Part shown: one piece after another, positions 35,236 through 52,108 of the stretch
Layout: each line of letters starts with the position of its first letter
How positions within the stretch are numbered: position 1 is the stretch's first letter
Virus record (IMG/VR): IMGVR_UViG_3300037255_000025
Span: 105,749 to 169,748 of that record
Source: a virus
Lineage: Duplodnaviria; Caudoviricetes
DNA: 64,000 nucleotides
Direction: 5' to 3' (one strand)
Translations under genes and position numbers: made by a program
The notes under the pieces: model-generated
What the model was told of the DNA's origin: nothing
Databases searched by the model: none
The model's input: only the letters and a program-made list of their open reading frames with translations

Positions 35236-36638
35236 CACGGAAACACCGGGAAGTTTCCCAACGTCGTCGCCGTGCAGTTGCACAGCGCGGTGTATGCGGC
35301 GCGACGCGGACAGCTTGGCCCGTGTCTCAGCATCTCCTCGGCCAGCGCGCGCGAGAGCGCAACCGGGTCAGGTCGGGTCTCGCCCACCCAGACGTACGAA
35401 CTACAGTAGCAGGGTCGCATGTTGCACTTGCAGCAGAAACCGTCGTAGCTGATGTCGCTCACGGACCTAGACTACCACGGGCCAGCCCGTCACGACTTCG
35501 GGTCGGTCGCGTCGCCGTGGGCTAGCACGACACCGCCGCCCAGCAGCGAGAACAGCATCTGGACATCTGCGAGCGTCAGCGTTAGTTGTCGGTTGGGCGG
35601 TGTTCCCTGGCGCGCGACCTCCAAGAGGTAGTCCGGGGCCTCGACGACAACGCTTCCGTCGCCGTTCACGGAAGCCGATAGCGCGGGGTTCGGGAGCTGG
35701 TGCATCAGACGGCTTTCGCGGCCGACACGAGGCCGACGCCGCCCGTAACGGCGCCGAGGATGGTCGCGACCGGGCCGAGGATCTTGGCAGCGAGCGCGAG
35801 CCACGCCTCGAAGCGCTCGAGCCCCGTCGGAACGTGCCCCGCCGCGGCCTCCTTCCACCCCTCGAGCTGAAGCTGAACCTCGCCCAGCGTCGAGACCCGG
35901 ACGTCCTCCGCGGACTGCCCCGTGAGGCCCGCGAACGCGATCACACCCTGCTCGACCTCCTCCGGCGTCATCGGCTCCGCGTCGAACGGCGTCAAGGTGG
36001 TCACTTCGATCGATCCTCGCCGGCTTGCGGCAAGACGACTGTCGTCACGACAGGCCCTTGCGCGACCCCGGGCGTGCACGGCGCGGGTAGGTCCTGGCCG
36101 CCGTCGACGCCGTTGCGTCGCAGGATGCCCTGAACCTCGGCGCGGGCAGGTCGCAGGTCGGCGCGGGCCCGGGCAACCCAGGGTGCTCCGGCGTCGCCCG
36201 GTACCTGGCCGAGGTCACACACCGCGGCGTCGATGAGCCGGCGGCTCGTGTCGAGCCCCGTGGTGTCTTGGGCGGCCAAGCCGTAGCAGCCAGCATCCAC
36301 GACGCCGATCATGAACACCGCAGCGAACGCGAGACGGGACCCGGACTTCATCGCCACAGCCTACCAGGCACCACCGCGCCCCGCTAGCCCGCGGCGTCGC
36401 CCGAGACCGCCGCGAGATTGGCCAGGGCCGCCGCGGTCGCGGTCTGGGCCGCGGTGTAGCGCGCCTGGTCGTTCACGAGCTGCGCGGCTTGGGCCGCCGC
36501 CTGAGCGGTTACGAACGCGACCCGGTCGGCCGACGCCGCGACGTTCTGCTGCGCGACCGTAACGGCTTGGCCCGCCTGGGCCTCTGCCGTGAGGGCCGCC
36601 TGGTACTGCACCATCGCGGCGACGACTGCCTGGCTCAT
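35235..36638 (-). other. cluster of small ORFs (36384-36638, 36001-36351, 35705-36004, 35490-35705, 35235-35462), some membrane-associated
   Basis: Coupled ORFs with hydrophobic segments; TAGNCT motifs upstream of two. Confidence 0.55.
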
Positions 36639-36698
36639 ACACGACAAGGTACTGCACGCCCCGGCGGAACGGCAACCGCCCCGGGTAAGAGCCCTTAT

Positions 36699-37214
36699 AT
36701 GACGCAGCCGAAGAACCCCGCGAAGGCTTACCAGGTCTTGTGGGAGAATAGCTTCATTGGTCCGTTCTACCGGGGACGGCGGCGCACGCTGCTAGACCAA
36801 GGAGACTTCGTCGATGTTGATCTGCGCCCAGACCCCGCACCCCTGCTGAGCGAACTGTGCCGCCGGTTTCCGCAGACAACGCCATCGATCGTCAACAGCA
36901 GCGCTGCCGACCCGATCCTTATCGTGTTTGAGCCGCGGGACCTACCGGTCCGCCGAGCGGCGAACCGTCTCCGCAAACCCCTGCGCGATCTAAACGACGC
37001 CGGACACTACACGTCGTTCTTTGCGCTGGTCACGCGCGACCCCGCCGACACCCTGCTGCTCCAGGGTGCCTGGCTTCTCGACTCGCAGCTCTACTGGACC
37101 AACGAGGTTTCGAGCCCCGCGCGCCGCAGCTCCCGTGTACCCGGCTGGGACGGCGTCAAGCCCATCCTCGATCGCCTCACGGCCGCGGGTCGCGTCTTGC
37201 TCCGCTGCGACTAG
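36699..37214 (+). CDS. hypothetical protein
   Basis: GAAC-N12-GGGTAAG upstream of ATG 36699. Confidence 0.55.
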   Translation: MTQPKNPAKAYQVLWENSFIGPFYRGRRRTLLDQGDFVDVDLRPDPAPLLSELCRRFPQTTPSIVNSSAADPILIVFEPRDLPVRRAANRLRKPLRDLNDAGHYTSFFALVTRDPADTLLLQGAWLLDSQLYWTNEVSSPARRSSRVPGWDGVKPILDRLTAAGRVLLRCD

Positions 37215-37221
37215 TCGTTCG

Positions 37222-40035
37222 TTAGTCGGGCGAGATCACGCGCGCTCCGACGGAGCCCGCCTGGATCGCGTGTTGAATCGCGCACTGGCGCGCGAAGCAC
37301 ATCGCGGCGATGCGGTCGGGTGTGTGGGCCGCGGGGTCGTAGCTGAACAGGTTCGACAGCCACTCGCTGGTCTCGCGGTCGCGCTGCTTGCCGTCGTGAC
37401 CCGTGGGGATGATCCACTTCTTGTTCATCATCTCGACCGCCACGGCCTCGACGACGAATTCGAGTGACGGGTTGACGCCCGAGCCGGTCCGGTAGGGCAC
37501 GACCGTGATGGCGCTGCGTCGGCTTAGCATGTCCAACATGCCCAACTGCGCCCCGACGGACTCGACCATGACGATCGACCCGAAGCGCTCGGCCGCGCTC
37601 TCGACCTTCGCGATCGTGTCGGGGCTGGTCCACCGGCCCGCCTCGACCTCGAGCACCCGCCGGTCCCCGTTGGGCATGACCGCGATCGTGAAGATGCATG
37701 ATAGGTCCGCCGCCGCCTTCTTGGAGAACGCCAAGTCCACGCCCGTGTAGATCCCGATGCGGTCCAGCGGACCCTCGGCGTGGTCCCCGAGGAGCCGCGC
37801 CGACTCAGCGGCAAGCTGCTGGTCGGCCCAGTCAGGGTGTCGCTCGAGCAGCTCATCGAACAGGTCCCCGGCCGAGTGACACGGGCGCAACCCCTCACCG
37901 CGCGCGCAACAAGCGTCCACCCACTCGCGCTTGAACCGCAAGCTCTCGTCGTCGCGCGCCTGGCACAACAGGGCCCGCGCGAACTCGAACGGCCCCATGT
38001 CCATGCGCTTCTGCTCGATGCGCTTCGGGGTCCACCGCTCGGGCCAGGCGACGACGCCCTGCTCGTCGTAAACCGGGAACCGGTACAACGCGAAACCCGG
38101 CTTCTTGGAAAGCCGGTGAACGAGGTCGTCCGGGTGCCAAGCGTTACTGAGTACAACCACGCGGGCCGAGCCCGTGAGCCGGCCCATCAGGGTCGCCTGC
38201 ACCCAGTTCCATAGGTGGTCGCGCGGGGTCTGGGTCCGGGTGTTCTCCGAATCCAACACGTCGTCCAGGATCAGGTCGTCGATGCGGGCGCCGTGGATGT
38301 TGCCGAAGATGCCCGTGGCCTGGACGCTCGGGTCCTTCGCGAACACGGTCCGCTCGACCGTGAGCTGGTGCAGGTTGAACGGCATCCGGACGTCCTTGGA
38401 CCGGACGAGGTTCGGGAAGACCTCGTGTAGCTCGTCGGACTGCTGAATGTACTGCCCGATGCTCCGGACGATCTTCTGGGCGAGCTGGCTCGTCTTGGTG
38501 ACGATGACGACGCGGCGGTTGGGGTTGCGCCCCAGGTTCCACAGCGTCCGACCCACGGACATCTGCACGGTGTTGTGCGTGACGATGTAGTCGCGGCCCG
38601 CAACGTACGTGCAGTCCGGCGAGGCCTCCGGGTCTACCGCGATGCAGCGCATCGGCACCGTGTCGACCCGGTCGATCGCTACAACGCACCGATACGTCAC
38701 GCGCGCGCCCCGCGCCGAGACCTCGCCGGTCTCGTGCATCGCTCGCTTCCGCGGAGACCAAAAGACGGGGTCGTGACTCGTGAAGCACACGCGCCAATTG
38801 GGCCCCATGTCCTGCCCGTTGAGCGTCGCCCGCTCCGTCGCGATGGTCGCCTTGATCCCGAGAGACCGCGCTAGCTCCAACACCGAGACGGCCAAGCGCT
38901 GCGTCGTGCTCGAGAATTCTACCCGTGCGCCTGCCGCCGACCCGTCGGTGTCGAGTAGTCCCGCGAGCAAGTCGCGCCGCTGCTCGACGGACCCGATGAG
39001 GTAGTCGGCCGGAACGTGCTTGTCCTCGAGCACGCCAACCTGCCGAAGCTTGTCCCGAAGACCCAACGCCCTAACGCCGCGCCGCCCGCCGCCGATCGTC
39101 ACCGTTACCGCGTTCGAACCCCTCTTGTCGTACGGCCAAACGCTCACCGGCGGGAGCCCCAGAAGCTCGTGACACCGGTCGGCCACCGCGCGGTCCTCAC
39201 CGTTGAACGTGACCGTAGCCTTGCCGACGGACCCGTTCCCAAGCCAGACCCCCAACACGTAAGGCGGCACCAGGTACGCGCGCGCCGGGTATTCCACCGG
39301 CGCCGTCAGCGGGATCCTCCAGTTGTAGAGGTCGTACCGCGACCCGTCGGCGCGTTTAGCCCCAGACCGCCGCGTCAAGCCCGCGTCGATCATTTCCTGC
39401 GTTGTCACGACGCGCCAACCGTCCTCCGAGAGTTCAGCTCGACTCGCGGCTTTGCGACGTGCCGCGCTCGCGGCCAAGCCATCGAGGAAAGCCTGCGACG
39501 GCGGCCGCTTCAGCTTACTCGGATCAGTGCGACGAGGTCGCTGTACCCGGCCGGTCTTTTCCGACGAGAGCCGGCCGACATCCGCCAAGTTGCGTGCGAC
39601 CCAGCGGTGCTCGTCCGACGCCACGATCGAGGCCCCGTCGTCAAACGTGAGCCGGTAGGTGACGTGGTCTAGCTCGACGGGGCCCGCCCACGTCACGCGA
39701 CACGCGCGGCCGTTGCGCCCGAAGACGACGTCGCCCGCAGCGAGGTCCCCCATGGTCCGCCAACCACCCGGCGTCGGGACCGGCGTGTCGACCGCGAGGT
39801 GCTTCCCGCTCTCAATCGCCGCAAGTATGAGTAATCGTTCATGTTTATCGAGAAGACCATGCCACGCGACGTGCTGCGGCGCGTTCGTGATGCGCTTGCC
39901 CGTCGACTCGTCGCGCAAGACGAACTGGTTGAACGCGACCGCGTTCGTCCGGGCCCGGACCGCAAGATTGCGCAGGACCTGATGGCCGACCGCGCTGTCG
40001 CGCGCGACCACGTGTTCTTCGGGCCAGTCAGCCAC
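37222..40035 (-). CDS. terL: terminase large subunit containing an intein
   Basis: Walker A ESGK|T, Walker B LILDDVLD, NAWHPDDL, nuclease GVDLA; GGAGG before GTG 40035. Confidence 0.9.
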   Translation of the reverse strand: MADWPEEHVVARDSAVGHQVLRNLAVRARTNAVAFNQFVLRDESTGKRITNAPQHVAWHGLLDKHERLLILAAIESGKHLAVDTPVPTPGGWRTMGDLAAGDVVFGRNGRACRVTWAGPVELDHVTYRLTFDDGASIVASDEHRWVARNLADVGRLSSEKTGRVQRPRRTDPSKLKRPPSQAFLDGLAASAARRKAASRAELSEDGWRVVTTQEMIDAGLTRRSGAKRADGSRYDLYNWRIPLTAPVEYPARAYLVPPYVLGVWLGNGSVGKATVTFNGEDRAVADRCHELLGLPPVSVWPYDKRGSNAVTVTIGGGRRGVRALGLRDKLRQVGVLEDKHVPADYLIGSVEQRRDLLAGLLDTDGSAAGARVEFSSTTQRLAVSVLELARSLGIKATIATERATLNGQDMGPNWRVCFTSHDPVFWSPRKRAMHETGEVSARGARVTYRCVVAIDRVDTVPMRCIAVDPEASPDCTYVAGRDYIVTHNTVQMSVGRTLWNLGRNPNRRVVIVTKTSQLAQKIVRSIGQYIQQSDELHEVFPNLVRSKDVRMPFNLHQLTVERTVFAKDPSVQATGIFGNIHGARIDDLILDDVLDSENTRTQTPRDHLWNWVQATLMGRLTGSARVVVLSNAWHPDDLVHRLSKKPGFALYRFPVYDEQGVVAWPERWTPKRIEQKRMDMGPFEFARALLCQARDDESLRFKREWVDACCARGEGLRPCHSAGDLFDELLERHPDWADQQLAAESARLLGDHAEGPLDRIGIYTGVDLAFSKKAAADLSCIFTIAVMPNGDRRVLEVEAGRWTSPDTIAKVESAAERFGSIVMVESVGAQLGMLDMLSRRSAITVVPYRTGSGVNPSLEFVVEAVAVEMMNKKWIIPTGHDGKQRDRETSEWLSNLFSYDPAAHTPDRIAAMCFARQCAIQHAIQAGSVGARVISPD
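38572..39801 (-). mobile_element. class-3 intein (410 aa) with LAGLIDADG homing endonuclease domain
   Basis: HLAVDTPVPTPGGW start; HRW, MRCI, VTHN|T; LGVWLGNG and LLAGLLDTDG blocks. Confidence 0.9.
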
Positions 40036-40867
40036 GGAGCCTCCGCAGGACCTCGGCGGCGGCCCACCAAGCAAGCACACCGCCCACGCGGCCCCCGCCG
40101 GTCGCGACCACGATACCGGGCGACGCCTCTCGCACGGTGGGCTCGGGCAGGACAGGGCGCATCCCCCAGATTGAACCACGATCCTCAAGCGTGCCCACAG
40201 CTTCTTGGAGCGGACCCAACGCCCGCACGCGCATTTTCTCTGTGTAGTCGTGCGCGCGCGATGGATCGCGCTCCAAAGTCTCGCCAAGCCGCACGACACC
40301 CAACCCCCACGAACGCGCCGCGTAGGCAAAGTACGACGTCACCGGGACCAGCATCGTCCGTGCGGGCGTTCGCTCCGCCTTGAACAAGAGACCGCGCCCG
40401 CCGAGCGCCTCGACGCCCACGAGGGCAAGCCCGCTTGCGTTCAGAATCTGGTCCGTCCAGACGCCCGCGGCGAGCACAACAAGCCCGCCCTCGACAACGT
40501 CGCCCCCCTGGAGGTGTACGCGGCCGCGCTCGACGCGCGTGACCTTCCCCGCAGCCCGCTCTGCGTAGAGCGCCAAAACGTCCTCGGGCCAGAACGTCGC
40601 CCAGTCCAACCGTGCCTTGCGTCCGACGACATCGGCACCGTCGAAGTCAAAAACAGCCCCGTGTTGCCGTCCGAGCGACTCGGCTGCGCGCGCTCGCTCG
40701 GCCCAAAGGCCCTTGTACCAAGAGCGCGCGTAATAGCCGCTCGCCGCTCGTGAGGCCGCGCTGGGCTCCGCCGAGTCGATCAAGGTAACAGACGCGCCTG
40801 CGTCGGCCGCGACCCGCGCGATAGCGGTCCCCCAGAAGCCGCCGCCCACCACGACGAGGTCCTTCAA
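40028..40867 (-). CDS. FAD-dependent oxidoreductase (DAO/glycine-oxidase-like)
   Basis: VVVGGGFWG dinucleotide fold, ASRAASG, VLAAGVW, WGMRP. Confidence 0.85.
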   Translation of the reverse strand: MKDLVVVGGGFWGTAIARVAADAGASVTLIDSAEPSAASRAASGYYARSWYKGLWAERARAAESLGRQHGAVFDFDGADVVGRKARLDWATFWPEDVLALYAERAAGKVTRVERGRVHLQGGDVVEGGLVVLAAGVWTDQILNASGLALVGVEALGGRGLLFKAERTPARTMLVPVTSYFAYAARSWGLGVVRLGETLERDPSRAHDYTEKMRVRALGPLQEAVGTLEDRGSIWGMRPVLPEPTVREASPGIVVATGGGRVGGVLAWWAAAEVLRRLRG

Positions 40868-41757
40868 AGCCCCACCAGCCTTCCGGTGTCCCGATAGACC
40901 GACTTCAGCACGGGCCGGACGCCAGACCAGCCCATCGCCTCGCCGCGGTAACGGGCGGGGAACGAAGCGGCGCGCGCAGCCCACCATACGGGGCCCAGGT
41001 TGTCGCGTACCAGCGTCTCTTGCTGTTCGTCGATGTCCTTGCCCAGGTAGTAATTCCCGCGGCACAGGCTGTTGTAATCGCACAACGCGGTCTCAAGCTG
41101 ATCGAGCGCGTTGAGCCCCGCGCCGCCGTCTTGGGCGCGCTTGAGCAAGTCGTGCTGGCGCTGCGGGTCGCAGCACTCCTGCCAGGTCATGCCCGTGAGC
41201 CGCACCATCCCGGGGATCGGCCCCGCGGTCTCGCCCAACTTTGAGCCGATGTCGGGCGCCGTGATGGGCAGCCCGTGAACCGACTTCAACAAGTCGGCCC
41301 ACTTGTAGCTCGCCCAAGGTCCCGCGTTCGGTACCGCCTCCAGCGCCGTCCGGACCTTCACCCAGCCCTCTTCCGGCGAGCCGCCCCGGGCGAGACCCGA
41401 GACCCAACCGTCGAGCGTCGCGGTGCCCACGGCTTCGAGTACCCCGTTGAGGAACGCCGCGGCTTTGGCTCGGCCAGCGTCGCCCCGGACGCCTCGACGC
41501 TCGATGCCGGTGGGCAACACCGGAAGCCGCGCAGGATCTATGGGCTCCGGAACGGGGTACACGAGCCCGACTTTTGCGGCGCTTCCGAGCGAGTACCAGG
41601 CCAAGTACAGGAGCGTCCGCCAAAGGCGGTCGGACTCCGGAAGATGCTGGTAGACGCGCGCCAACACGGGGTACGTCGGGTCCAGGTCACCCGACTCGAC
41701 CTGCCCGCGGGAGAACCGGCAAAAGTCTCGGAACGAGTCGCGCCCGTGCAGCGTCAT
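40864..41757 (-). CDS. amino acid:DNA transferase (aGPT-pyrophosphorylase clade-2-like)
   Basis: DLDPTY, GPWASYKWADL HhH-like, LETALCDY, YY.GKDIDE. Confidence 0.8.
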   Translation of the reverse strand: MTLHGRDSFRDFCRFSRGQVESGDLDPTYPVLARVYQHLPESDRLWRTLLYLAWYSLGSAAKVGLVYPVPEPIDPARLPVLPTGIERRGVRGDAGRAKAAAFLNGVLEAVGTATLDGWVSGLARGGSPEEGWVKVRTALEAVPNAGPWASYKWADLLKSVHGLPITAPDIGSKLGETAGPIPGMVRLTGMTWQECCDPQRQHDLLKRAQDGGAGLNALDQLETALCDYNSLCRGNYYLGKDIDEQQETLVRDNLGPVWWAARAASFPARYRGEAMGWSGVRPVLKSVYRDTGRLVGL

Positions 41758-42194
41758 GGGAACAGGTAGCAGCACAGGGCTCGGCGCTGATCGCTCTTGG
41801 CTCGCGCGCGCCCCATCAAGACGCCCCCGAGGCTGACGTAGAACGCGTTGCTCGCTAGGTTGGTGGCGTCGGTCTTGAGTTCAAGAGGTCGAGGCATAGA
41901 ACCCACCAAGGCACGCGCGAACCCTTGACGCCGCGCCGCGGGCAGGACTCCAATCTCGCCCAGGACCGCGACGCCGTCGCGCGCCCGGACTCTGTAATGG
42001 GCGAACGCCGCACCCTCGACACCCACCCAGTGCTCGCGTGCGACCTTGTGGGGCGTCGACGTGCGCGCTTTCTGATAAACGTACCAGGCGCGCGCCCCCA
42101 CGACGAACCAGGACCCGATGTCCGCCTCGACCGAGGTCCAGACACGCTTGAGCCACTCGGTGTCGGTGGGCTCGAGCCCACGAACAACCGTCAC
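41754..42194 (-). CDS. GNAT acetyltransferase
   Basis: EIGVLPAARRQGFARALV; N..SNAFY.SLG. Confidence 0.85.
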   Translation of the reverse strand: MTVVRGLEPTDTEWLKRVWTSVEADIGSWFVVGARAWYVYQKARTSTPHKVAREHWVGVEGAAFAHYRVRARDGVAVLGEIGVLPAARRQGFARALVGSMPRPLELKTDATNLASNAFYVSLGGVLMGRARAKSDQRRALCCYLFP

Positions 42195-43144
42195 GCGTCA
42201 GACTCCTCTGGCTCAACAACCTGGGGCTCGTCCTCCTCGTCCTCTTCGAGCGGCCCGCCGAGGGCCCCACGGAGGTTCTTCGCGCGCTCCCGCTCCTCCG
42301 CAGGGCTCAGGCAATCGAGCATGCCAGTGCGGAAGTAGAAAACTACCGAAATCCGCTCGTGGCCCCCGTGGTCTGGGTCGCCCGCGGGGCCGACGGCGCC
42401 GTGTATGGGCGTGTTGCCGTGGACCTCGTGCGGGTCGAACGCGATGACGTCACGGTCCTGGAGATCCACCGCGACGCCGAAGCGCGGGAATACCAATTCG
42501 CCCCCGCGATAGCTACCCTGACGCAAGACGCTGATGATGCCGAACCCCTCGGGTAGGTCGCCTGCGTCGCGATGGCAACCGCCAGCGAAGGTGTTGTTGA
42601 CCGTGAGGGTCGTGAAGGGCGTGCCGGGGACCACGTACGCCGGGTGCGTCTTGGCGGCCGCCACCATTTGAGCCGCGTACCGGTCCGGCGCGACCGACTC
42701 GAACACCCGCGCGACCTGCTGGACGTATGGAAAGCACGCGGCCCACTCTTCCGGCCGCTCCATCGAGGCCGCGCAGGCCCGACAGTACGGGATGCGCGCG
42801 TAGCGGTCCGACGAGCCTACGACGGCCGACGCTACAGGTTGACCACCAATGTTCGTGCGAGAAAGCTGGCCCGACGCCAAGACACGCTTGTTGCGACCAG
42901 AGGCGCCGAAGTGCCCACGGTTGTTGGTCTTGCGGTTGCGAAGCCAGTGAAGGAACGGGTAAGCGGCGTCCGCGGCCTCGCGGTTCACGGCGGCGCGCCG
43001 GAGCGTCAACAGGCGCTCGCCTGACGGCTTGTAGACCGTGCAGTCGCCCTCGGCCTTCAGGACGATGTCCTGGGGCAGCATCCGGCGCCCCAGCATGGCC
43101 TCAACCTCTGCTGCGGGCCGCTGCCCTCTGAGCTGTACGATCAC
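42191..43144 (-). CDS. TET/JBP-family 2OG-Fe(II) dioxygenase
   Basis: TPFTTLTVN, HRD.GD (HxD), HEVHGNTP, RISVVFYFR. Confidence 0.88.
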   Translation of the reverse strand: MIVQLRGQRPAAEVEAMLGRRMLPQDIVLKAEGDCTVYKPSGERLLTLRRAAVNREAADAAYPFLHWLRNRKTNNRGHFGASGRNKRVLASGQLSRTNIGGQPVASAVVGSSDRYARIPYCRACAASMERPEEWAACFPYVQQVARVFESVAPDRYAAQMVAAAKTHPAYVVPGTPFTTLTVNNTFAGGCHRDAGDLPEGFGIISVLRQGSYRGGELVFPRFGVAVDLQDRDVIAFDPHEVHGNTPIHGAVGPAGDPDHGGHERISVVFYFRTGMLDCLSPAEERERAKNLRGALGGPLEEDEEDEPQVVEPEESDA

Positions 43145-43884
43145 GCTTCCCCGGGGAGCCCCGCGACAGCCTGCGCAACCGCGGCCAACACGGCCTCCGT
43201 GACGTTCGGCGTACCCCAGGCGGCGTTGAGCCGCTGGCATTCCGCCAAGAACTTCGGCTGCGTCGTCGAATCCAGGTAGAGCTGCACCATGCGAGTCTGC
43301 GCCACCCCCGCGTCAGGCGTGTCGCTACCCTGGTGGAGGTTCTGCCTCGGCTCGTCTTGCTCGCCCAGCGCAGGGTTTTCACCGTCACCGACGGTCGACA
43401 CCTCCATGGGCGCGACCGCCAGCATCTTCATCAGCTCCTCCTCACCGAAGCCGAGGTCGATCGCGCTCAGGGCCTCGCCCCCTTGGTCAAGGCCGCGCAG
43501 CAAGTCCTCCAGCTTCGTCGGGTCCCACTGGCCACGCTTCTGGTTCATCTTGACCGTGAGCTTCTTGGCCTCGGCCTCGGTCAAGCCGTTCAGGAAGACC
43601 ATCGGACCGGACTTCAGCCCCAACTCGGTCGCGGCAGCCCAACGGTGCTCCCCGTCTACAATCAGGTCACGCTTCGCCCCGGTCTCGTCCGTCCCCCAGA
43701 CAAGCAGCGCCTGGGACGCGAGCCAGCCGTCCTCGAGCAGGCCGTGCTTCAGGCTCTCGGCCTGGGCGGGCGTCATGACGTTCGGATTGTACCCGTTGGG
43801 CTTGACGCTCTTGAGGGGTCGCATCACGACCTCGCCCACGACCCGGGCCTTCTTCTCCACCGCGGGCTCTTGCTCGACGCTCAT
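43141..43884 (-). CDS. ParB/Srx N-terminal domain protein
   Basis: PNGYNPN, IVDGEHRW, N..RG. Confidence 0.85.
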   Translation of the reverse strand: MSVEQEPAVEKKARVVGEVVMRPLKSVKPNGYNPNVMTPAQAESLKHGLLEDGWLASQALLVWGTDETGAKRDLIVDGEHRWAAATELGLKSGPMVFLNGLTEAEAKKLTVKMNQKRGQWDPTKLEDLLRGLDQGGEALSAIDLGFGEEELMKMLAVAPMEVSTVGDGENPALGEQDEPRQNLHQGSDTPDAGVAQTRMVQLYLDSTTQPKFLAECQRLNAAWGTPNVTEAVLAAVAQAVAGLPGEA

Positions 43885-43899
43885 GCCCGCACTGTCTCA

Positions 43900-44009
43900 G
43901 AGACGTCTCAAACTTGCAACGTTCTCCGGGGGGTTCAGCAAGCTGATACCCGGTTCGGTTCCTGCCCAACCAGAGGTTTCGTACCACGCTTACGCGCAGC
44001 ACCAGAGCC
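43900..44009 (-). ncRNA. orphan omegaRNA-like element without tnpB (guide TTGCAAGTTTGAGACGTCTC)
   Basis: 90-nt homology (43920-44009) to tnpB 3' ends, with compensatory stem changes, ending GGAGAACG. Confidence 0.75.
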
Positions 44010-44181
44010 GCCCCGGTACCGCCGCCCTGGCTTCCGCCTCTGTATTGAATACCCAGGCGAACTCAACCAACGGCGTGAACGAACGCGCGGCCGTGAGATC
44101 GCTGTTGCGTAGGTAGTAGTAGTACCCTGGCTTCTGTTCCGGACGACCTAGTTCACCCGCTCTGTATCGGACGACCCACAC
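43990..44181 (-). pseudogene. paralogue family member truncated by the omegaRNA element
   Basis: VWVVRY...YYYYL...AWVFNTEAEA, then runs into the omegaRNA; lacks the VVxLAD tail. Confidence 0.6.
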
Positions 44182-44189
44182 GGGGGCGG

Positions 44190-44945
44190 CTACTTGGAGC
44201 AGAGCGCGGGCGAGAACAACTTCCCCGGCCACTGCACGGCGAAGCCCGCTCGGGCGTCTCGGACACGCGCCTCGGCCGCGACGATGTCGTCGCCCGCTTC
44301 CTTGACCTCGTAGAGGTTGACGACGCCGAAGCGCGCGCCGTTCGCCCGGATGTGCGCGAGCCGGGCCTGCTGATACCGGAGGTTCGCGAGGGCGTCGCAA
44401 GTCGCACGCGCGTCGTTCGCGATATGCTCGGCCGTCCTTCGGACCATGCAAGCCCGGTCGGGTCGGCACGCCCGCTCCTCCACCAGGAGCTTCTCGTAAG
44501 CGTTGAGCGCCATCGAGAGCTTCACGTCGTCCGGCGGGGCCTCGTCGCACGTGTCCTTGAACGCGCTCCTCGCCAGGGTGAACCGCTCACGCGCGTCCGC
44601 TAGATCCCGCTCGCGCGACTCGATGTCGCCGAAGAACGGGTCGATGCGCGTGACGATCTCGACCGACGCCAGCTTGGCCTCAAGCGCCTTTCGGGCCTTC
44701 AGGCACTGCATCGCCTGCTGCCCGTCCGCCACGCCCTTGGCCGCCATCGCGAGGGCCTGCTGGTTGCGCGCGGCCTGTTCGTCACGCATCCGCTGGAAGT
44801 TGGCCTCCCGGGCCTGCGCCCGGGCCTCGGGACTCGGGCCGGTTGTGTGCGGTGCGGGGTTGCGCTGCCCAACCGTGATACCGCCGAAGTCGCAACCTGC
44901 GCACGCGAGCAAAACGAAGAAGAGACCTAGCTGTAGCGGTTTCAT
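44190..44945 (-). CDS. lipoprotein
   Basis: MKPLQLGLFFVLLACAGC signal/lipobox. Confidence 0.7.
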   Translation of the reverse strand: MKPLQLGLFFVLLACAGCDFGGITVGQRNPAPHTTGPSPEARAQAREANFQRMRDEQAARNQQALAMAAKGVADGQQAMQCLKARKALEAKLASVEIVTRIDPFFGDIESRERDLADARERFTLARSAFKDTCDEAPPDDVKLSMALNAYEKLLVEERACRPDRACMVRRTAEHIANDARATCDALANLRYQQARLAHIRANGARFGVVNLYEVKEAGDDIVAAEARVRDARAGFAVQWPGKLFSPALCSK

Positions 44946-45409
44946 CAGACGGTTCCTTTGTTGGTCGTGACCTTGCGGCGCTGCTGCACCGGGCGCACGG
45001 GTTTCGGGTAAGTCATTGACGAGCCGTCCGCGAACCTATCGCGAGCCGTCTTTGACGGGGTCTGCGAGGGTCGCGCCCAGGAGAACGCCTGGAACAGCAC
45101 GGACCAGACGTCGTGGTAAACGTCGGCTCGTGCGTGCCCTTGCTTCGAAGCGACTGCGTTCTTGAAGTTGTCGTACTTGAGCCCCTCGAGCAGGAACCGC
45201 CCGACGAAGGCCGCGAGCGCGTCCCGCTTGACGACGACCCGGAACGGGTAGTCAGTCACGGCCGACGTCAGGACCTTCGAGGTTTCGAGCCCCGCGCGCC
45301 GCAACGCCAGGAGGTCCTCCCGGACGCGGGACCGGACCAACAGCTCATCCGCCGCCGCGGGCTGCTTGGAGACGACAGAGAAGACACCAATGGGCAAAAA
45401 AATCCACAC
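44945..45409 (-). CDS. conserved-looking phage hypothetical protein
   Basis: WIF...FSVV..LLVRSR..DL..TDYPFR..Y.NFK. Confidence 0.6.
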   Translation of the reverse strand: MWIFLPIGVFSVVSKQPAAADELLVRSRVREDLLALRRAGLETSKVLTSAVTDYPFRVVVKRDALAAFVGRFLLEGLKYDNFKNAVASKQGHARADVYHDVWSVLFQAFSWARPSQTPSKTARDRFADGSSMTYPKPVRPVQQRRKVTTNKGTV

Positions 45410-45507
45410 GACGATGCTCAACCTTTCACGTAGCCCCTGGTGCCTCCCAATCAGCCGCGCGAGCCACCCCAGCGTGAACGCCATCCGCGGTGAGAGGCGC
45501 GGCCATG

Positions 45508-46712
45508 TCAGGCGTACCCCGCGTACCGATCCTCGCGGTCGCTGTCCCCGTCGCACTCGCGGCACAGGCCCACCTCCGGCGCCTCGGAGGCCGTCTCGCG
45601 CGTGCCATCGACGAGCACGAATCCGCGCGTGACGGCCTTGCGGCGGGGGTGCCGCACGCAATGTCTACGGTCCGCCTTGCCGCGCGCGGCCTCGCTCTCC
45701 GTGACGCGGATCACGAGAACACCTTGCCGTCTACGACGTAGACGGCCTCCGGCTCGACGCCGGGCGGCGCCGCCCCGTCCGGGACGTAGACCCAGACATC
45801 AATGGCTGGGTCTAGATACGCGAGGACCAGGCCCGTTCCGTGGATCTCGTTGAGGGATGCCTCGACGAGATCCTGACTTGGATCTCCCGCCAGGACGGCG
45901 GCGTCCTCGCCTCTCATGACGATTCCGCAGGAATCGCCGATGGCCTCCTCCCGGAGGCGCTGATCTGCTGCGGAGCGCGGCTCCGCGTCGTGGGACGCGA
46001 CCCACGCGAGCGCTTGGCGGTTCGTCACGATGTCACCTCCGTGAGAGCAGCGAGAGCCGCTCTCTTGTCTTTTCTCGTAGTCCCCACGTGTTCCCACATG
46101 CCGGAGCCCTCCACTCCGTCGTCGTGGGACAACCGACGGACCCAGCCGTCCATGCGCTCCGTGAGCGGCTGCCCGAGCCGGCGCGCGCGCTCCTCACGAG
46201 GCAGCGAGAGCCACGCCGCGAGCAGCGCCGTGCGAAGCACCCGGCCCTCCCCAGGGGGGCCAGCGTACCGCTCGCTGAGGTAGCAGCGAGGGTCACCGCA
46301 GTCGCCGCGGTCGATGCCGCAGGCCATGCATTCGTTGCTCTTCGCGATGCACGCGCTATGCGCGGGCATCCCATCGACGGTGGTGTCCGGGTCGATCATG
46401 ATCTTATTCGCTTCCTTCTGCGCCTCGGCGCAGCACAACCGGCTGGGGCGAAACGACGGACCCGCGCTAGTCGCGCGCGAAGCTATGGAGGTCGCCGAGG
46501 CGGACAACGATCTTGCGCCCGTCCGCGGTCGTGACGTCGACCAGCGTATCGGGCGACTGGGCGTGGAAGGCGAAAACGTCCGACATCTCGACCTCGACCT
46601 CGGTGTGACCCGCGAGGCTCGTCGCGCCCGCGGCGTCGGTGACGACCTCGCCCCCAAGGAAGCAGCAGTGGATCGAGGTCTCGGTCACCAGGTTCGTCGT
46701 CTCGTTGCTCAT
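45508..46712 (-). other. small hypothetical ORFs (46467-46712, 46025-46399, 45711-46028, 45508-45714)
   Basis: Mostly coupled ORFs downstream of a sigma70-like promoter. Confidence 0.55.
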
Positions 46713-46763
46713 GTCTAGAACTATAAGACGAGTTAGGCAGAGCGCAAGTGTTAGAAGAGAATT
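46713..46763 (-). promoter_or_regulatory. sigma70-like promoter, copy 1 (TTGCGC-N16-TATAGT-N7-ATG)
   Basis: Conserved with 59871-59921, including upstream AATTCTCTTCTAACAC. Confidence 0.8.
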
Positions 46764-46778
46764 AAGTTCAGGGGACGT

Positions 46779-47291
46779 CTATCTGGGTTCCCTCCCACAC
46801 GGCCGCCAGACGACGACGACGCTCGCGAAAAACCCGCTGGCTCGGTACGGCCCCCCGGTCAGGAAGCGAACGCGGCCCCGGATGTACCGGACCTCGGCGT
46901 GACCGATCACGTCCTCGTGCCACCACGCCAGGTCCGTCGATGCAGGCAGCAGGCCGACGACGAGCGCGCCGCGCGCAGCCTCGTTGCGAGCCTTCCTCGT
47001 CCAGGCGTAGACCTCGCGCCCGTAGGGCGGATTCATGAAGACCCTCTCTCCCGACCAACTCGCCGAGAGCCCGTCCGACGCCTCGTCGAAGTAGCGCGGA
47101 CACTTCGCCGTCTGGGTGGTCGCGCAGGGGTCGAGCGTGAAGGCGAACTCCGCGTGAAGCGGGTCGAAGACCTCCGGCGGCGTCTCCCAATGCCGGCCAT
47201 TTCCGTTGTACCGCCCATTGTTTTTCGCGCGCGCTCCGCCGAGTACCGCGGGGTTGTCGGTCGCGGCGATAGTTCTGCGGTTCGCACTCAT
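46779..47291 (-). CDS. phage N6-adenine DNA methyltransferase (Dam-like)
   Basis: WETPPEVF, FTLDPCA, FMNPPYG, LLPASTD..WW. Confidence 0.88.
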   Translation of the reverse strand: MSANRRTIAATDNPAVLGGARAKNNGRYNGNGRHWETPPEVFDPLHAEFAFTLDPCATTQTAKCPRYFDEASDGLSASWSGERVFMNPPYGREVYAWTRKARNEAARGALVVGLLPASTDLAWWHEDVIGHAEVRYIRGRVRFLTGGPYRASGFFASVVVVWRPCGREPR

Positions 47292-47728
47292 CAGGGGACG
47301 TACTTCCCGGCCGCTCGGCGGCGCAGGACCAGCTCGCCGAACGCGTGCTCGAAGTCCTGCCAGTGCTCGGCGTTGCGCTCGTGGAGCGCGATGAGGTCGC
47401 GCTCGCTGACGTAGGAACCGTCGTCCATCGCGGTGTCCATCCACGCCATCGCGCCCGGGATGTCCTCCTCGGGCGGGTACGGCTTCGGCTCCGGCGGCGA
47501 CAAGCGCGGGGGCTCACGCACGGTCGCACCCACGAAGCCCGGGACATCCATGGTCTTGGGCCCCGTCGCGTGCTGCGTGTACTGCTTGAACCAGAGTCCG
47601 CGCCGGGAGCGCGTCAGCGGGTCGTCCGCGCCCTCGTCCAGCTCGATCTCCTTGTGGAACAGCTCGCCCGCCGCCTTGGCGAGCGACGCGTCCGTGTAGC
47701 CCAGGATCGTCAGCTCTGCGTAGTACAT
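47291..47728 (-). CDS. hypothetical protein
   Basis: GGAGG and GGGTAAG upstream; coupled to the methyltransferase. Confidence 0.6.
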   Translation of the reverse strand: MYYAELTILGYTDASLAKAAGELFHKEIELDEGADDPLTRSRRGLWFKQYTQHATGPKTMDVPGFVGATVREPPRLSPPEPKPYPPEEDIPGAMAWMDTAMDDGSYVSERDLIALHERNAEHWQDFEHAFGELVLRRRAAGKYVP

Positions 47729-47768
47729 CTTGAGGCCTCCGCCGGTCCCTTACCCCCCGCGGGCCCCG

Positions 47769-50700
47769 TTAGTCGAAGTTGATGCCGCCTGCCTTCATCG
47801 CCTTGAACAGGCTCTCGCGGTCTTGGTACCCGTAGGTCTTACCCTTGTACTGGACATCGTGGTCCTCCTTGGGCAGCACCAGGCCGTTGTTGTGTCCCGG
47901 CCCCGCGATCATCTCGCGCTCGTGCTTGTAGGTTGAGGAGAACGTGCCGTCGTCCAGGACCTGGTCGAAGGCGGTGTGGTCGATCGGGCACTTCCACCGG
48001 AGCAACACACCATTATGGCCGGCGAAGAAGTCCTTGGAGTGCTTCTCTCCCATCGACCAGCTCGCCAGCTCCGCGTGTTTCTTGATCGTGACGGTGCTGA
48101 CGGTGTCGTCCTTCCAAGCCTTGGCCATCTCGATGGCGGTCTCGGGCTCGTACTGCATGCCCCGCGTGAGGTCGAAATGCGTTGGGGCCTGGGCGTCCTT
48201 CACGCCCACATGCTCCAGCATCGCCTTCCACCGCGCCGCCCGCGTCTCGACCGCCGCCGCCATCGTGGCCTTGGTGTTCGGCAAGACCGGCTGCCGAGGC
48301 GCGCCCTTCTCGGTCACGTCCGCGAACGCGGCGTAAACACGTCCGTGGGCACCGCCGTCGGAGTGGCCCTGCGCGGTCCACTCCTTAACGATGCTCTTGA
48401 TCGCGTCGTGGGTCGCGCTTGAGAGCCCGACCCCCTTGTTGACCGCGGCGATGGCTTTGTTTTGCTTCGTGGAGCTGACCGGTAGCTCGGCGAGCGCCGC
48501 GGCAACCTTGTCGTGGGCACCGCCGTCGATCGCGTTCTTCAGGCTCAAGACCTTCTCGGGCGGCGCGACCGGCTTGGGCTTCGACGCCTCGTACGCGTCG
48601 CTCGCCTCCTTCAAGAGGCGCCCGCGGGTCTCCAGCATCTCGACCACCTTGGCGTGGTCCTTGGGCGCGAGGTCCGGGATGCGGTCCTGGACGTACTTGG
48701 TCCAGCCGCCCGGCGCGGCCGCGAGCTTCGTGATGCGCTCGACCTGTTGCCGGAAGCCCGGGGCCTCGAACGCGTTCTTGACGCCCGCGGCCTCGAGCAC
48801 CTTCGCGTACTGGGGCGCGACGGACTTGTCGAAGCTGCTCGTCAGCTCTCCGACCTCGAGCTTCCCGGGCTTGTCACCGCCCTGGGCCTTGAACAGCAAC
48901 ACGCCGCCGTTGTCGACGCGCGCGATCGAGCCGTCCGGGAGCTTGAGGACGTTGTCGCCGCTATACCCGATGACGTCCCGGTTCGCCAAGAAGACGTCGG
49001 CGGCGAACCCCTGGGCGACCTCGCGCGCGTCGCCCTTCGATGGCGACAGCCCCAGCGGCAAGCCCCCCGGGAGGATCGTCGACGCGTACAGCGTCTTGCC
49101 CTCGTGCTGGAAGACTTGGCTCTCCGGCGCCTTCACGCCCAGGTCGTTATAAAGCTGGTTGGCGAGGTGCTCGACGTGGGCCTGCGACGGGTTCGCATAC
49201 TCCTTGATGTAGCGCTGGACGCCGTCGGTCCCGAGCCAGAAGCCGCTCTTGCCCAGGGCGTTGCTCCCGGCGGCGCCGCCGGTCTTGGTACCCAGGACGG
49301 TCGTGCCGACGCTCTTGACGGGCGGGGCGTAGTCCCGGCTGAGCAGATCGGGCTGCTTCGCCAGCTTGGGCCCCAGCTCCGCGAGGATCTTCTTGTCGCG
49401 GTCCATGTTGAGAAGCCCCGCGGCGTCCTTCAGCGTCGTGAGCTTGACCGCTTGGGTCTCGGCCATGCCGCCGGGCGGCGCCTTCAGGCCGTCCCGAGGG
49501 TCACCGCCGACCCGCTGGGCGATGTAGTAGCGGGTCGTGCTGACGCTGCCCTTGTAGTCGCCCATGAGGCCGACGATCCGCACCTTCAGCCCGCTCTCCT
49601 CGTGGACCTCCTTGAGCGCGTTCTGCTGCGGCGTCAGGCTCTCGCCTGCGTCCATCTTGCCCTTGGGCCATGTGTTCTGCGCACCACCGAAGTGGCCCTT
49701 GGGCTCGTAGATCCACATGCGCCCGTCAGGCTCCATGACGATGCAGCCGGTCGAGATGTGCGACCCGGTCGGCATCGGTCCCTCGCCGACCTCAACGTCC
49801 TGGGTGTGCTTCCAGAAGCCCCCCGCCTCGGAGTTCAACGGCACGCCGTTCAGCGTCGTCGGCGCTGGCGGTCCGAGAGCGATGCCATCCGCGGAGACGC
49901 CCTTGTCCCCCCAGGCGCACAGTGCCTTCGGGTCCCCCAACGGGTTCGGGGGCTCCGGGGGCGACACCACGGGATCGGGCGGCGCCGGGGCTGCGACCTT
50001 CGCCGCATCGGCCTCGGCCCGGAGCGCCGCCTTGATGGCGGCCCCGTTGGCCTCGTTGTGCGCGTTGGCGGCGTTCACCAAGGCGTCGACGCCCGCGAGC
50101 CCGTGCTTGCCGTTCGTGGCGGACTCGGTCTTGATCGCGTTGACCAGCGCCTCGCGCGCGGTCTCGTGCGCGTCGGCGGCGGCCCGGTAGACCTCCGGGG
50201 TCTTCTCCAACTCCGCCTTGGCGGACAGTCTGTTGGCGTCGCGGCTGGCGTTGATCGCCGCGACCATCGCGACCTCATGGGCCGCGTGTTCCGGCTTGAT
50301 GTCGCCCGCGCCCTTGACCAGGTAGTTCTTGCCCGCCCGGGCGTGAAAGTCCTTGGCCCGCTGGGCCGCGGCCGCGGTCATCTCGAGCTTCTTGAGCGCC
50401 TTGGCGTGCTGCTCCGGGGGCAGCGTCTTGAGCGTGGCGTCGATCTTCTTCAGCAGCGCCTCGTGGGCCGCGGCCGTGATGACCTTGCCGGCGACGACCT
50501 TGCCCAGCGCTTCGGCGTTCTGCGCGGCCTTCTTGGCCCCGGCGATGAACTTGCCGTGCTCGTCGCGGATGACCGTAGATTCGTCGAAGTCGCCCGCCTT
50601 CTCGACCGCGAAGCTCAGCTGCACCGGGGCCCACGCGGCGCGCAACGCGGCCTTGGTAACCTCGGGGTCAAGCGGGGGTGCGTTCGGTACGGGTGCGCCA

Positions 50701-51077: not shown

Positions 51078-51090
51078 CGTACCACGATCG

Positions 51091-51378: not shown

Positions 51379-51505
51379 GAGGTCGCGATAACCTAGCGGC
51401 TAGGTTTCACAACGTGATCGCCGATGTAGCCCAGGGGGTTCTCCGCCGTCATGGGCGCAACCCCTCCGGGGGAGCTTTCGATAAGCTCCGCGACCTCATC
51501 GTCGG

Positions 51506-52108
51506 TCATGTGGTTGGGTTGGGCTGGGCCGTGTCGAGGAACCCGATCAGCTCCGACAGCAGGTCCTGAACCGGCTGGGAGGCGTCGAACTGGTGCCCAA
51601 GATTCGGCCCAGTGCCCCAAGCCTCCGCAAACCGGCGGGACTTCGTCGCGCGGCCCAGCATCCAGTTGGGGTTCTGGTTCGAGCCCCGGGCGGCGCGCCT
51701 CTCCGCCAACAACGGCTCAGGCGCGACCAGGTGCGCGACCGCGAGCGTGGCCCCGGGGCCCGGTCGACATTGGCCCGCTACGGAGCTGCGGTCGAAGAAC
51801 CGCGCGACCTTCTCGAGGCTAAACCGGTCACCGTCGAAGACGGTCAACGGGCAGCCGTGGAGCGCCGGGTCCGCGGCCCATGAGTCCAGCGAGGCCTCGA
51901 CGCCGTTGTACGGGACCGTGTCGGCGCCGTCGAACGTTCCGCCCGTGTAGTGTCCCGCCGCGACCATAGCGCCCGGCACGACGGTCCACTTGGGCTTGGG
52001 CGTGCCATAGCGAAGTTGACCGGAGTCGAGCCAATCGAGCAGCGCCCGAACCAACGTCGTCTTGCCGCACCCCGGCGCACCAACGACCCATAGAATGGTG
52101 GGCGTCAC
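51506..52108 (-). CDS. P-loop kinase, 5-hydroxymethyluracil DNA kinase-like
   Basis: GAPGCGKTT, GHY.GGTFDGAD, FDGDRF, RR.ARGS.QN..W..GR.TK. Confidence 0.75.
   Translation of the reverse strand: MTPTILWVVGAPGCGKTTLVRALLDWLDSGQLRYGTPKPKWTVVPGAMVAAGHYTGGTFDGADTVPYNGVEASLDSWAADPALHGCPLTVFDGDRFSLEKVARFFDRSSVAGQCRPGPGATLAVAHLVAPEPLLAERRAARGSNQNPNWMLGRATKSRRFAEAWGTGPNLGHQFDASQPVQDLLSELIGFLDTAQPNPTT

Follow-up and report, generated by a model that had tools for sequence, protein, structure and literature searches.

A ParB- and TET/JBP-containing cassette next to the large terminase gene of an uncultured 170-kb phage, predicted to hypermodify thymine after replication

Background

Pseudomonas phage PaMx11 makes 5-acetylaminomethyl-dU (5-AcNmdU), a nucleoside with a mass of 299 u, by means of its enzymes gp46, gp47 and gp48 (Lee et al., NAR 2021, PMC8989533). 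Structures of the enzymes of this pathway have been reported (Wen et al., NAR 2024, PMC11472151). In PaMx11 the starting base, 5-hydroxymethyluracil (5hmU), is supplied before replication by the dUMP hydroxymethylase gp51.

Contigs that carry TET_JBP genes without a hydroxymethylase were also described by Lee et al. (NAR 2021, PMC8989533). More recently, phage thymine dioxygenases that depend on ParB were reported, with links to kinases, amino acid:DNA transferases (AADTs) and terminases (O'Toole et al., PNAS 2026, PMC13229309; preprint 10.1101/2025.08.14.668559). One of these enzymes, 5mYOX176, makes 5hmU on double-stranded DNA in a ParB-dependent manner. According to the accounts in Lee 2021 and O'Toole 2026, operons combining TET, aGPT-Pplase and kinase genes were first predicted by Iyer et al. 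2013. The idea of a post-replicative, TET-fed pathway is hence already in print (PMC8989533, PMC13229309).

Here we analysed a stretch of 64,000 nucleotides (the window) from an uncultured, high-GC phage with a genome of 169,748 bp, the completeness of which was rated 100% by CheckV. The locus consists of genuine genes. Because pathways of this kind were published between 2021 and 2026, it counts as a good further example rather than as a new system.

Results and discussion

Gene order and junctions

An earlier note on this DNA had described a thymine hypermodification operon coupled to the terminase gene. All the genes that it named were found at the positions given there, on the minus strand:

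43141..43884, minus strand, ParB-like activator, 247 aa
42191..43144, minus strand, TET/JBP-family Fe(II)/2OG dioxygenase, 317 aa, predicted ParB-dependent thymine dioxygenase
41754..42194, minus strand, GNAT acetyltransferase, 146 aa, predicted 5-aminomethyl-dU N-acetyltransferase
40864..41757, minus strand, amino acid:DNA transferase (AADT / clade-2 aGPT-Pplase), 297 aa, predicted glycine:5-phosphomethyl-dU transferase
40028..40867, minus strand, DAO-family FAD enzyme, 279 aa, predicted N-alpha-glycinylthymine lyase/oxidase
37222..40035, minus strand, large terminase (TerL), 937 aa including a 410-aa LAGLIDADG intein, GTG start
38572..39801, minus strand, the intein, in the Walker A motif of TerL between ...ESGK and T...
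51506..52108, minus strand, P-loop kinase of the PF18751 type, 200 aa, predicted 5-hmdU DNA kinase analogue

Read from the sequence, the ParB/TET and TET/GNAT junctions are GTGA overlaps, the GNAT/AADT junction is ATGA and the AADT/FAD junction is TTGA, which agrees with the four 4-nt NTGA overlaps described before. The flavoenzyme gene also overlaps that of TerL as claimed, but over 8 nt (GTGGCTGA) rather than 4, with GGAGG ahead of the GTG start. This start is backed by the closest relative, locus L004, which has the equivalent start residue, GGAGG ahead of it and an overlapped flavoenzyme stop. TerL matched phrog_38 at 4e-64 in PHROGs, and its intein gave LAGLIDADG_3 and Hom_end matches. 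The TerL of L004 is intein-free, with a contiguous GK-T at the intein site, and the exteins of the two proteins are 66% identical.

Promoter and terminator consensus scans over positions 36000-53000 gave matches at chance level only. We saw no copy of the GAAC-N15-TAAGG motif of the phage in the 305 nt that precede ParB, nor a C-terminal tail common to the six enzymes, e.g. a clamp-docking tag.

We propose that the enzymes would appear during DNA packaging because their genes would be co-translated with that of the large terminase. What suggests such a tie between modification and packaging is the position of the cassette and its start/stop overlap with TerL.

The dioxygenase and the source of 5hmU

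The dioxygenase, the single TET in the whole genome, matched Tet_JBP (PF12851) with 81.7 bits in Pfam. The iron triad (H191-x-D193, H242) and the 2OG-binding Arg (R264) are invariant in 27 sequences. Past C278 the protein continues into a conserved LSPxEExxRAK helix (residues 281-294) and an acidic tail. In the variable region around 71-100 indels are frequent and pLDDT is low. In the AF2 model (pLDDT 88.7, pTM 0.84) the top Foldseek match was human TET2 (E 3e-13). The GTG start at 43144 is backed by 26 homologues, in which the N-terminus 'M-x-VQLRS' is conserved; in the database the gene is called from a start 16 codons downstream. Scanning IMG/VR with TET as a single protein yielded no confirmed relative, and an alignment-based scan yielded 550.

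The earlier statement that the window holds neither a dUMP hydroxymethylase nor a C5-methyltransferase (C5-MTase) was borne out and could be extended to the complete genome of 169,748 bp. No match at E<=1 was obtained there for PF00303, the ThyA-type dUMP hydroxymethylase family, in a search whose control matched in 10 of 14 genomes. Likewise, nothing was found at E<=1 for PF00145 (C5-MTases) and PF01555 (N6/N4-methyltransferases), and PaMx11 gp51 reached a best E of 1.7 against the genome in tblastn. The genome does encode ThyX, therefore ordinary dTMP should be made by the phage. With neither a pool-level source of 5hmU nor a source of 5-methylcytosine (5mC), the genome supports the earlier idea that 5hmU is made after replication by the dioxygenase.

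An alternative is that TET acts on 5mC placed by the host or by an unseen methylase, feeding a cytosine-based modification. Such a substrate is suggested by locus L005, in which the order is ParB-C5 MTase-ParB-TET and the TET, 56% identical to ours and in the same sub-clade of a tree from a quick IQ-TREE run, adjoins the C5-MTase. Moreover, phage enzymes of the 5mYOX class also oxidise 5mC in vitro (O'Toole et al., PMC13229309). For these two reasons the base specificity of TET is not readable from its sequence. Yet a genome rated complete is without a C5-MTase, such an enzyme occurs in just one of 86 related loci (a hydroxymethylase in none), and for the kinase, the AADT and the glycinyl-thymine lyase, activity has so far been shown only on thymine-derived bases. 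We consider the 5mC substrate very improbable and take thymine as the substrate in what follows.

The ParB-like protein

The ParB-like protein scored slightly under the Pfam cut-off for ParB_N (24.5 versus 26.3 bits) and clearly in PHROGs (phrog_620 at 2e-18, phrog_498 at 2e-23). [quoted passage not shown] Foldseek placed Noc at the top of the nearest structures, which also included ParB of M. xanthus (7bnr), B. subtilis (6sdk) and C. crescentus (7bm8) as well as KorB. Neither the model nor Foldseek revealed a canonical HTH DNA-binding domain (DBD). Judged from the model, the protein is of the DBD-less type that was shown to activate phage thymine dioxygenases.

ParB could instead serve packaging or partition, e.g. 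as a pac-site or small-terminase-like factor, its adjacency to TET being incidental. The cassette fills the slot just upstream of TerL, the usual place of the small terminase, and no TerS was identified. The CTD also resembles a ribbon-helix-helix fold, although its matches to PDB profiles were sub-threshold (best E 0.07; CopG 0.29, HP0222 0.44; also VapB30). Against such a role, 76 of the 86 related loci have a ParB homologue with TET irrespective of the nearness of TerL, the HTH domain is missing, and cognate ParBs are required for TET activity on double-stranded DNA (O'Toole et al., PMC13229309). A packaging protein placed beside TET by chance is hardly probable, and we regard ParB as the likely activator of the dioxygenase.

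Because its profile matches all remained sub-threshold, the ribbon-helix-helix idea is a lead and not a result. If the CTD formed a DNA-binding ribbon-helix-helix dimer, ParB would do more than help allosterically and might steer the dioxygenase to chosen sequences. Co-translation of the cassette and the terminase would then restrict the mark, a patterned, partial 5-acetylaminomethyl-dU derived wholly from thymine, to DNA bound for packaging. We see this as a long shot. If true, the modification would be a site-selective, packaging-timed mark as opposed to a bulk anti-restriction coat.

The tailoring enzymes

Domain and homologue matches support the proposal that the gene set equals the PaMx11 tailoring set plus TET/JBP and ParB. 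The AADT matched ADDT (PF18724) with 29.8 bits, over the Pfam cut-off of 26.2, and aligned with PaMx11 gp46 at 24% identity (E 4e-9). It is identical to gp46 at 12 of 12 catalytic, metal, glycine-binding and phosphate-pocket residues (gp46 residues from PMC11472151). Among the corresponding pairs are C247 and C226, E243 and E222, W146 and W148, and K150 and K152 (gp46 first); of 40 sequences, all keep C226 and 38 keep E222. The residues with which gp46 contacts glycine, D24, W146 and K150, all have identical counterparts here. Since every residue of the glycine pocket is kept, the donor specificity of the AADT may be readable from its sequence. A subgroup of eight relatives has other residues at exactly these positions.

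The flavoenzyme matched DAO (62.9 bits, Pfam), aligned with PaMx11 gp47 over its full length (26% identity, E 9e-15) and matched the PDB entries 8z2o/8z79, 'Flavin-dependent lyase', at E 3e-14, with 8z2o likewise covered along the full length. It keeps the GxGxxG motif. R242 of gp47, the proposed glycine-carboxylate-binding Arg, corresponds to the invariant R237, and W51 and K268 are kept as W50 and R260. The wedge residue Tyr180 of gp47 is Ala169 here and Gln182 is Thr. Downstream of Ala169 lies an 11-aa insertion, which together with the Ala is common to L004. A tblastn search of the phage collection with the flavoenzyme gave nothing even at E<=1, a miss that, in view of the clear direct match to gp47, is probably due to filtering or composition.

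The GNAT matched Acetyltransf_1 with 23.8 bits (Pfam cut-off 20.7) and carries an R-R-Q-G-F-A motif of the acetyl-CoA type. Its match to PaMx11 gp48 was weak (29% over 82 aa, E 1e-3); its predicted assignment to the gp48-type 5-NmdU N-acetyltransferases derives from the recurrent context, GNAT genes being part of such cassettes in 12 loci.

The kinase gene, which shares the strand of the tight cassette, stands apart from it at a distance of 7.6 kb upstream, and the layout of L004 is the same (kinase...NUDIX...ParB). It scored 26.2 bits on Ploopntkinase3 (PF18751), slightly under the cut-off of 27, and is 26% identical to Phelemich gp5 (E 1e-5), which itself scores 246 bits on this family. With PaMx11 gp49 the P-loop alone aligned (E 0.018); gp49 matches AAA_33, Zeta and PF18748. 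The gene noted earlier as resembling 5hmU-DNA kinases is indeed a P-loop kinase, but of a family that differs from the biochemically proven 5-HMUDKs (M6 gp54 / PaMx11 gp49 type). We treat it as a functional 5-HMUDK analogue because a PF18751 kinase is present in 43 of the 44 AADT-containing loci among the 86. This near one-to-one pairing argues that PF18751 kinases may be the 5hmU-DNA kinases of TET-fed cassettes.

An FAD enzyme occurs in 20 of the 86 loci; the full set, and the trio of AADT, FAD enzyme and GNAT, were each counted in 12. Relatives otherwise shuffle their tailoring sets freely, with GATase and LMW phosphatase genes occurring as well. A DNA-level search of the phage collection returned short patches of TerL and AADT only, in mycobacteriophages.

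The same pathway logic might lead to another end product, through a non-glycine donor or different tailoring by the flavoenzyme or the GNAT. This shuffling, the marginal GNAT match and the Ala and insertion at the flavoenzyme wedge would fit such an outcome, as would the AADT, which is as distant from the PhiW-14 putrescine transferase as from gp46. On the other hand, the glycine contacts of gp46 are retained here and differ in the eight-member subgroup, the proposed carboxylate-binding Arg of gp47 is invariant and the trio recurs. We judge a different product unlikely, though deserving of weight; the final product is probably 5-acetylaminomethyl-dU.

Proposed pathway

Most likely, the enzymes of the cassette oxidise thymine once the DNA has been synthesised and convert it to an acetylaminomethyl base. 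The scheme starts from gene identities, junctions, residue conservation, the genome-wide lack of other 5hmU or 5mC sources and the recurrence of the gene set, all seen directly, and takes each chemical step from the published biochemistry of homologues. The kinase substrate, the final product and the timing and extent of modification we infer.

The genome would be replicated with ordinary thymine, using the phage's own ThyX. The ParB-like protein would then activate the dioxygenase on double-stranded DNA, and some of the thymines would be hydroxylated at their methyl group to give 5hmU, the hydroxyl of which would be phosphorylated by the P-loop kinase. Cys226 of the AADT would attack C6, expel the phosphate and allow the addition of glycine, giving N-alpha-glycinylthymine. 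Oxidation of the glycine N-C-alpha bond by the flavoenzyme would release glyoxylate and leave 5-aminomethyl-dU, and acetylation of the amine by the GNAT would yield 5-acetylaminomethyl-dU. That the hypermodified thymine is made in this way, wholly post-replicatively and with this end product, we regard as likely.

Comparison with known systems

With the gp46-gp49 pathway of PaMx11 the locus shares an AADT whose catalytic and glycine-pocket residues are identical, a full-length flavin-dependent lyase homologue, a GNAT and the predicted order of reactions. It differs in its kinase, which is from another P-loop family, in the wedge Tyr180 of gp47, which is not kept, and in having no counterpart of gp51, TET and ParB presumably acting on finished DNA instead. 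The ThyA-family dUMP hydroxymethylase of pre-replicative 5hmU phages (SPO1, M6 and PaMx11 type) is likewise absent. The source of 5hmU is apparently a thymine dioxygenase and not a hydroxymethylase acting on the nucleotide pool, ordinary dTMP being made with ThyX.

The class described by O'Toole et al. (5mYOX clade C1, e.g. 5mYOX176/ParB176) has in common with the locus a TET/JBP gene beside a ParB with NBD and CTD and no DBD, a variable insert in TET and a C-terminal extension past the last Cys that both subclasses of the enzymes conserve, which is C278 here and C280 in 5mYOX176. Also common are the lack of a C5-MTase and links to P-loop kinases, AADTs, GNATs and often terminases. This likeness is one of described features rather than of sequence placement. 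In contrast to that class, the locus has the complete PaMx11-type tailoring set and a kinase gene 7.6 kb away. The trypanosomatid JBP1/JBP2 proteins of base J synthesis also hydroxylate thymine in DNA post-replicatively by a TET/JBP dioxygenase, the hydroxyl then being decorated. They act independently of ParB, the making of base J involves glucosylation but neither phosphorylation nor amination, and the sequence relation is remote.

The cassette of this 170-kb phage leaves the published picture unchanged and adds a clean, complete natural case in which the full PaMx11-type chemistry is apparently fed by a ParB-activated thymine dioxygenase. Similar cassettes stand at the left end of the genomes of cultured actinophages, namely Mycobacterium phages Phelemich, Reprobate and Acadian, Rhodococcus phage Tonitrus, and Gordonia and Microbacterium phages. 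They run ParB-TET-AADT-(oxidoreductase)-PF18751 kinase-TerL, with overlaps that, as here, measure 4 nt and, at the entry to TerL, 8 nt. The kinase family is the same and the AADTs are 35-40% identical to ours, whereas the TETs are far more distant (28-35% over the core) and the genomes measure 53-72 kb as compared to 170 kb. In Phelemich no GNAT was seen and the kinase lies inside the cassette, unlike here. RefSeq names such as 'queuine tRNA-ribosyltransferase', 'terminase small subunit' and 'adenylate kinase' hide the system in these phages. Phelemich, Reprobate, Acadian, Tonitrus and several of the Gordonia and Microbacterium phages are easily grown, and the virion DNA of these carriers of the same cassette lends itself to direct analysis.

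Results and discussion

Cassette genes and their junctions

The virus record of 169,748 bp has a CheckV completeness of 100%, and the window covers its final 64 kb. The window DNA has a GC content of ~68%, and codon-position GC identified the minus strand as the one carrying the real genes of the cassette region. The relevant genes are the following:

51506-52108, minus strand: P-loop kinase (PF18751 26.2 bits, cut-off 27)
43141-43884, minus strand: ParB-like protein (Pfam ParB_N 24.5 bits, slightly below the cut-off; PHROG ParB families to 2e-23)
42191-43144, minus strand: TET/JBP dioxygenase, TET (81.7 bits)
41754-42194, minus strand: GNAT, between TET and AADT
40864-41757, minus strand: amino acid:DNA transferase, AADT (PF18724 29.8 bits, exceeding the cut-off)
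40028-40867, minus strand: DAO-family flavoenzyme (62.9 bits)
37222-40035, minus strand: large terminase, TerL, bearing an intein

The genes from ParB to the flavoenzyme are tightly packed head-to-tail. An earlier note had described these five genes as joined by 4-nt overlaps, the last one overlapping TerL, and had placed a kinase-like gene upstream; all three observations were borne out. The junctions from ParB to the flavoenzyme read GTGA, GTGA, ATGA and TTGA in the sequence, and the flavoenzyme stop lies within GTGGCTGA, whose GTG, with GGAGG ahead, is the TerL start. The TET start at the GTG at 43144 yields the N-terminus M-x-VQLRS, as in 26 TET homologues; the database gene call begins 16 codons downstream of it. 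In L004, the locus of the closest relative, TerL starts at the equivalent residue, behind GGAGG and overlapping the flavoenzyme stop. Hence, homologue N-termini and the L004 TerL start support the GTG start of TET and the window TerL start.

Directly upstream of the kinase start, GGTCGN-type hexamer repeats (52105-52338, minus strand) encode a Val/Gly-rich ORF of 77 aa, the TGA of which overlaps the kinase GTG (GTGA); this ORF may be a genuine small gene, or else a leader of low complexity. The interval between kinase and cassette encodes a protein of 1102 aa (47769-51077, minus strand), with a NUDIX domain at its centre, which has a 1357-aa counterpart at the same location in L004 and is adjoined by a DUF2786-like small gene (51091-51378).

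The TerL intein is of the LAGLIDADG type, comprises 410 aa (38572-39801, minus strand) and interrupts Walker A after ...ESGK and ahead of T.... In L004 TerL, to which the window exteins are 66% identical, this site is unbroken (GK-T). The TerL genes of the related TET loci L005 and L030 (913-928 aa) probably carry inteins too. The window intein has neither Cys nor Ser as its first residue, and a Cys lies close to its C-terminal block; these features suggest that it may be of class-3 type.

Predicted source of 5hmU

In the window, the earlier note had seen neither a dUMP hydroxymethylase nor a C5 cytosine methyltransferase, and had proposed searching the remaining genome. We ran that search and both were absent from the complete record. 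Profile searches, with positive controls in 10-14 reference genomes, found no gene of the thymidylate-synthase family, which includes the dUMP/dCMP hydroxymethylases, anywhere in the record; C5 cytosine and N6/N4 methyltransferase genes were likewise absent from it, and a tblastn search of the genome with gp51, the dUMP hydroxymethylase of phage PaMx11, found nothing. The genome has a single TET copy. ThyX is encoded slightly upstream of the window; therefore, the phage makes ordinary dTMP. By gene content, the genome has no visible way to synthesize 5hmdUTP or 5mC.

The ThyX (Thy1) domain (49.6 bits) resides in an ORF of 561 aa, far longer than typical ThyX proteins, at genome positions 101973-103658, ~2.1-3.8 kb ahead of the window (L008:1135-2820 on a stretch of the same genome). 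A second weak Thy1 match follows downstream in the same frame.

Predicted tailoring enzymes

In PaMx11, the kinase gp49, the glycine:DNA transferase gp46, the flavin-dependent lyase gp47 and the acetyltransferase gp48 convert 5hmU in DNA to 5-acetylaminomethyl-dU, the nucleoside of which is given as 299 u (PMC8989533). We retrieved this region and compared its proteins directly with those of the window. The flavoenzyme aligns with gp47 from end to end (26% identity, E 9e-15), and its closest solved structures are 8z2o and 8z79, both 'Flavin-dependent lyase' entries. The AADT is 24% identical to gp46 (E 4e-9), the similarity of the GNAT to gp48 is weak (E 1e-3), and the kinase has the P-loop alone in common with gp49. 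The kinase is assigned by context, and the GNAT by generic GNAT identity plus context.

Positions named in the structural paper (PMC11472151) were mapped through family alignments. In the AADT, 12/12 catalytic, metal-binding, glycine-binding and phosphate-pocket residues of gp46 are identical, among them the nucleophile Cys (C226), kept in 40/40 sequences, and the Trp, Lys and Asp that contact glycine; the glycine-contact positions differ in 8 relatives. The flavoenzyme retains the base-cage Trp and Lys/Arg, and the Arg proposed as the binding site for the carboxylate of glycine is invariant. One functional residue differs from gp47, the DNA-wedge Tyr180, which is Tyr in 15/17 homologues and Ala here and in L004. 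This Ala is followed by an 11-residue aromatic insertion, SYFAYAARSWG (within residues ~169-190), common only to these two; together they may provide a different base-flipping mode.

ParB and TET

In the AF2 model of ParB (pLDDT 86.5), a ParB nucleotide-binding domain is followed by three short helices, and a disordered acidic linker then leads to a small C-terminal domain. The closest structures to this model are Noc, the ParB proteins of M. xanthus, B. subtilis and C. crescentus, and KorB. The TET model (pLDDT 88.7, pTM 0.84) has human TET2 as its nearest structure; an insert at residues ~71-100 is poorly conserved, and the last conserved Cys, C278, is followed by a conserved helix and an acidic tail.

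ParB residues 193-247 (43144-43308, minus strand) form a strand - helix - G-T-x loop - helix unit conserved in 37 homologues, and this C-terminal domain looks like a ribbon-helix-helix (RHH) module. A PDB profile search with it gave sub-threshold matches only, several of RHH type (CopG family, HP0222, VapB30). In published work, the ParB C-terminal domain is described as a dimerisation domain, with no obvious DNA-binding domain reported. A second protein with a ParB_N domain (28.2 bits) is encoded far from the cassette on the opposite strand (genome ~73790-74752, plus strand; L091:791-1753, another stretch of this genome).

Related loci

The protein collection contains at least 300 homologues of the TET, and IMG/VR contains 550. 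We scanned 86 loci, comprising the 80 best IMG/VR loci, 3 assembly loci, 2 cultured phages and the genome that includes the window, using iterated profiles seeded with window, PaMx11 and Phelemich proteins.

Genes at the 86 loci (absences are weak evidence because many contigs are short)
ParB: 76/86
PF18751-type kinase: 52/86
AADT: 44/86, 43 of these also with kinase
TerL within 10 kb: 32/86
Flavoenzyme (FAD): 20/86
GNAT: 17/86
Full set ParB+TET+AADT+FAD+GNAT+kinase: 12/86
C5 cytosine methyltransferase: 1/86
Hydroxymethylase: 0/86

Gene order varies among the full-set loci, with several arrangements. In a quick TET tree, window and L004 are sisters (TETs 75% identical), and the AADT+FAD module is dispersed, supported branches forcing at least 7 changes, which indicates modular exchange. 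At two further TET loci, a glutamine amidotransferase or low-molecular-weight phosphatase-like gene occupies the tailoring slot of ParB-TET cassettes (L046:9012-9656 and L030:8129-8539), which points to different end products.

Base specificity

L005:7472-10909, on an NCBI metagenome assembly contig, has the order ParB - C5 cytosine methyltransferase - ParB - TET, with no AADT near the TET. This TET is 56% identical to that of the window and falls in the same sub-clade; it may be a ParB-type dioxygenase acting on 5mC, or on both bases. Given this locus, and since published enzymes of this class also oxidise 5mC, thymine specificity in the window rests on gene content, not on TET sequence. Oxidation of thymine in DNA by the dioxygenase followed by tailoring, as the earlier note proposed, is supported as an interpretation by gene content, the absent 5hmU and 5mC sources and the conserved gp46 residues. 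The tie of the cassette to packaging is positional only.

Comparison with known systems

That reading matches the literature, where it is already described. Lee et al. 2021 reported metavirome contigs lacking a hydroxymethylase and carrying TET_JBP beside thymidine-hypermodification genes, from which they inferred thymine oxidation in DNA (PMC8989533). O'Toole et al. (preprint 2025, PNAS 2026) used PF12851 to collect thymine dioxygenases from IMG/VR and divided them into a ParB-dependent and a ParB-independent subclass; 5hmU formation was ParB-dependent in vivo and, in vitro, on dsDNA, with an NTR preference, which they report for 5mYOX176. Linked genes encoded P-loop kinases, AADTs, GATases, GNATs and, in 19% of contigs, terminases (PMC13229309). 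In their ParB-dependent subclass, ParB has a nucleotide-binding and a C-terminal domain without a DNA-binding domain, and TET carries a variable insert and continues past C280 into an extended C-terminus (PMC13229309); the window ParB and TET show these features.

TET/JBP and PF18751 kinase genes also occur at the left genome end in KF416341 (L002), NC_023701, NC_008195, PP978825 (L003) and ~100 further records of the phage collection. Many actinophage records name these genes 'queuine tRNA-ribosyltransferase', 'oxidoreductase', 'adenylate kinase' or 'terminase small subunit', names that conceal a probable thymine-modification cassette.

Cultured actinophages share the cassette layout of the window. 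Phelemich genes 1-6 encode ParB-like, TET, AADT, oxidoreductase, PF18751 kinase (246 bits) and TerL; overlaps of 4 nt occur between the genes, and one of 8 nt leads into TerL. The layout is similar in Tonitrus, Gordonia and Microbacterium phages and many cluster-B mycobacteriophages. Specific to the window are a predicted full PaMx11-type tailoring set behind the ParB-TET pair, a kinase lying apart from the cassette, 7.6 kb upstream, an arrangement also present in L004, and the direct start/stop overlap of the cassette with an intein-bearing TerL.
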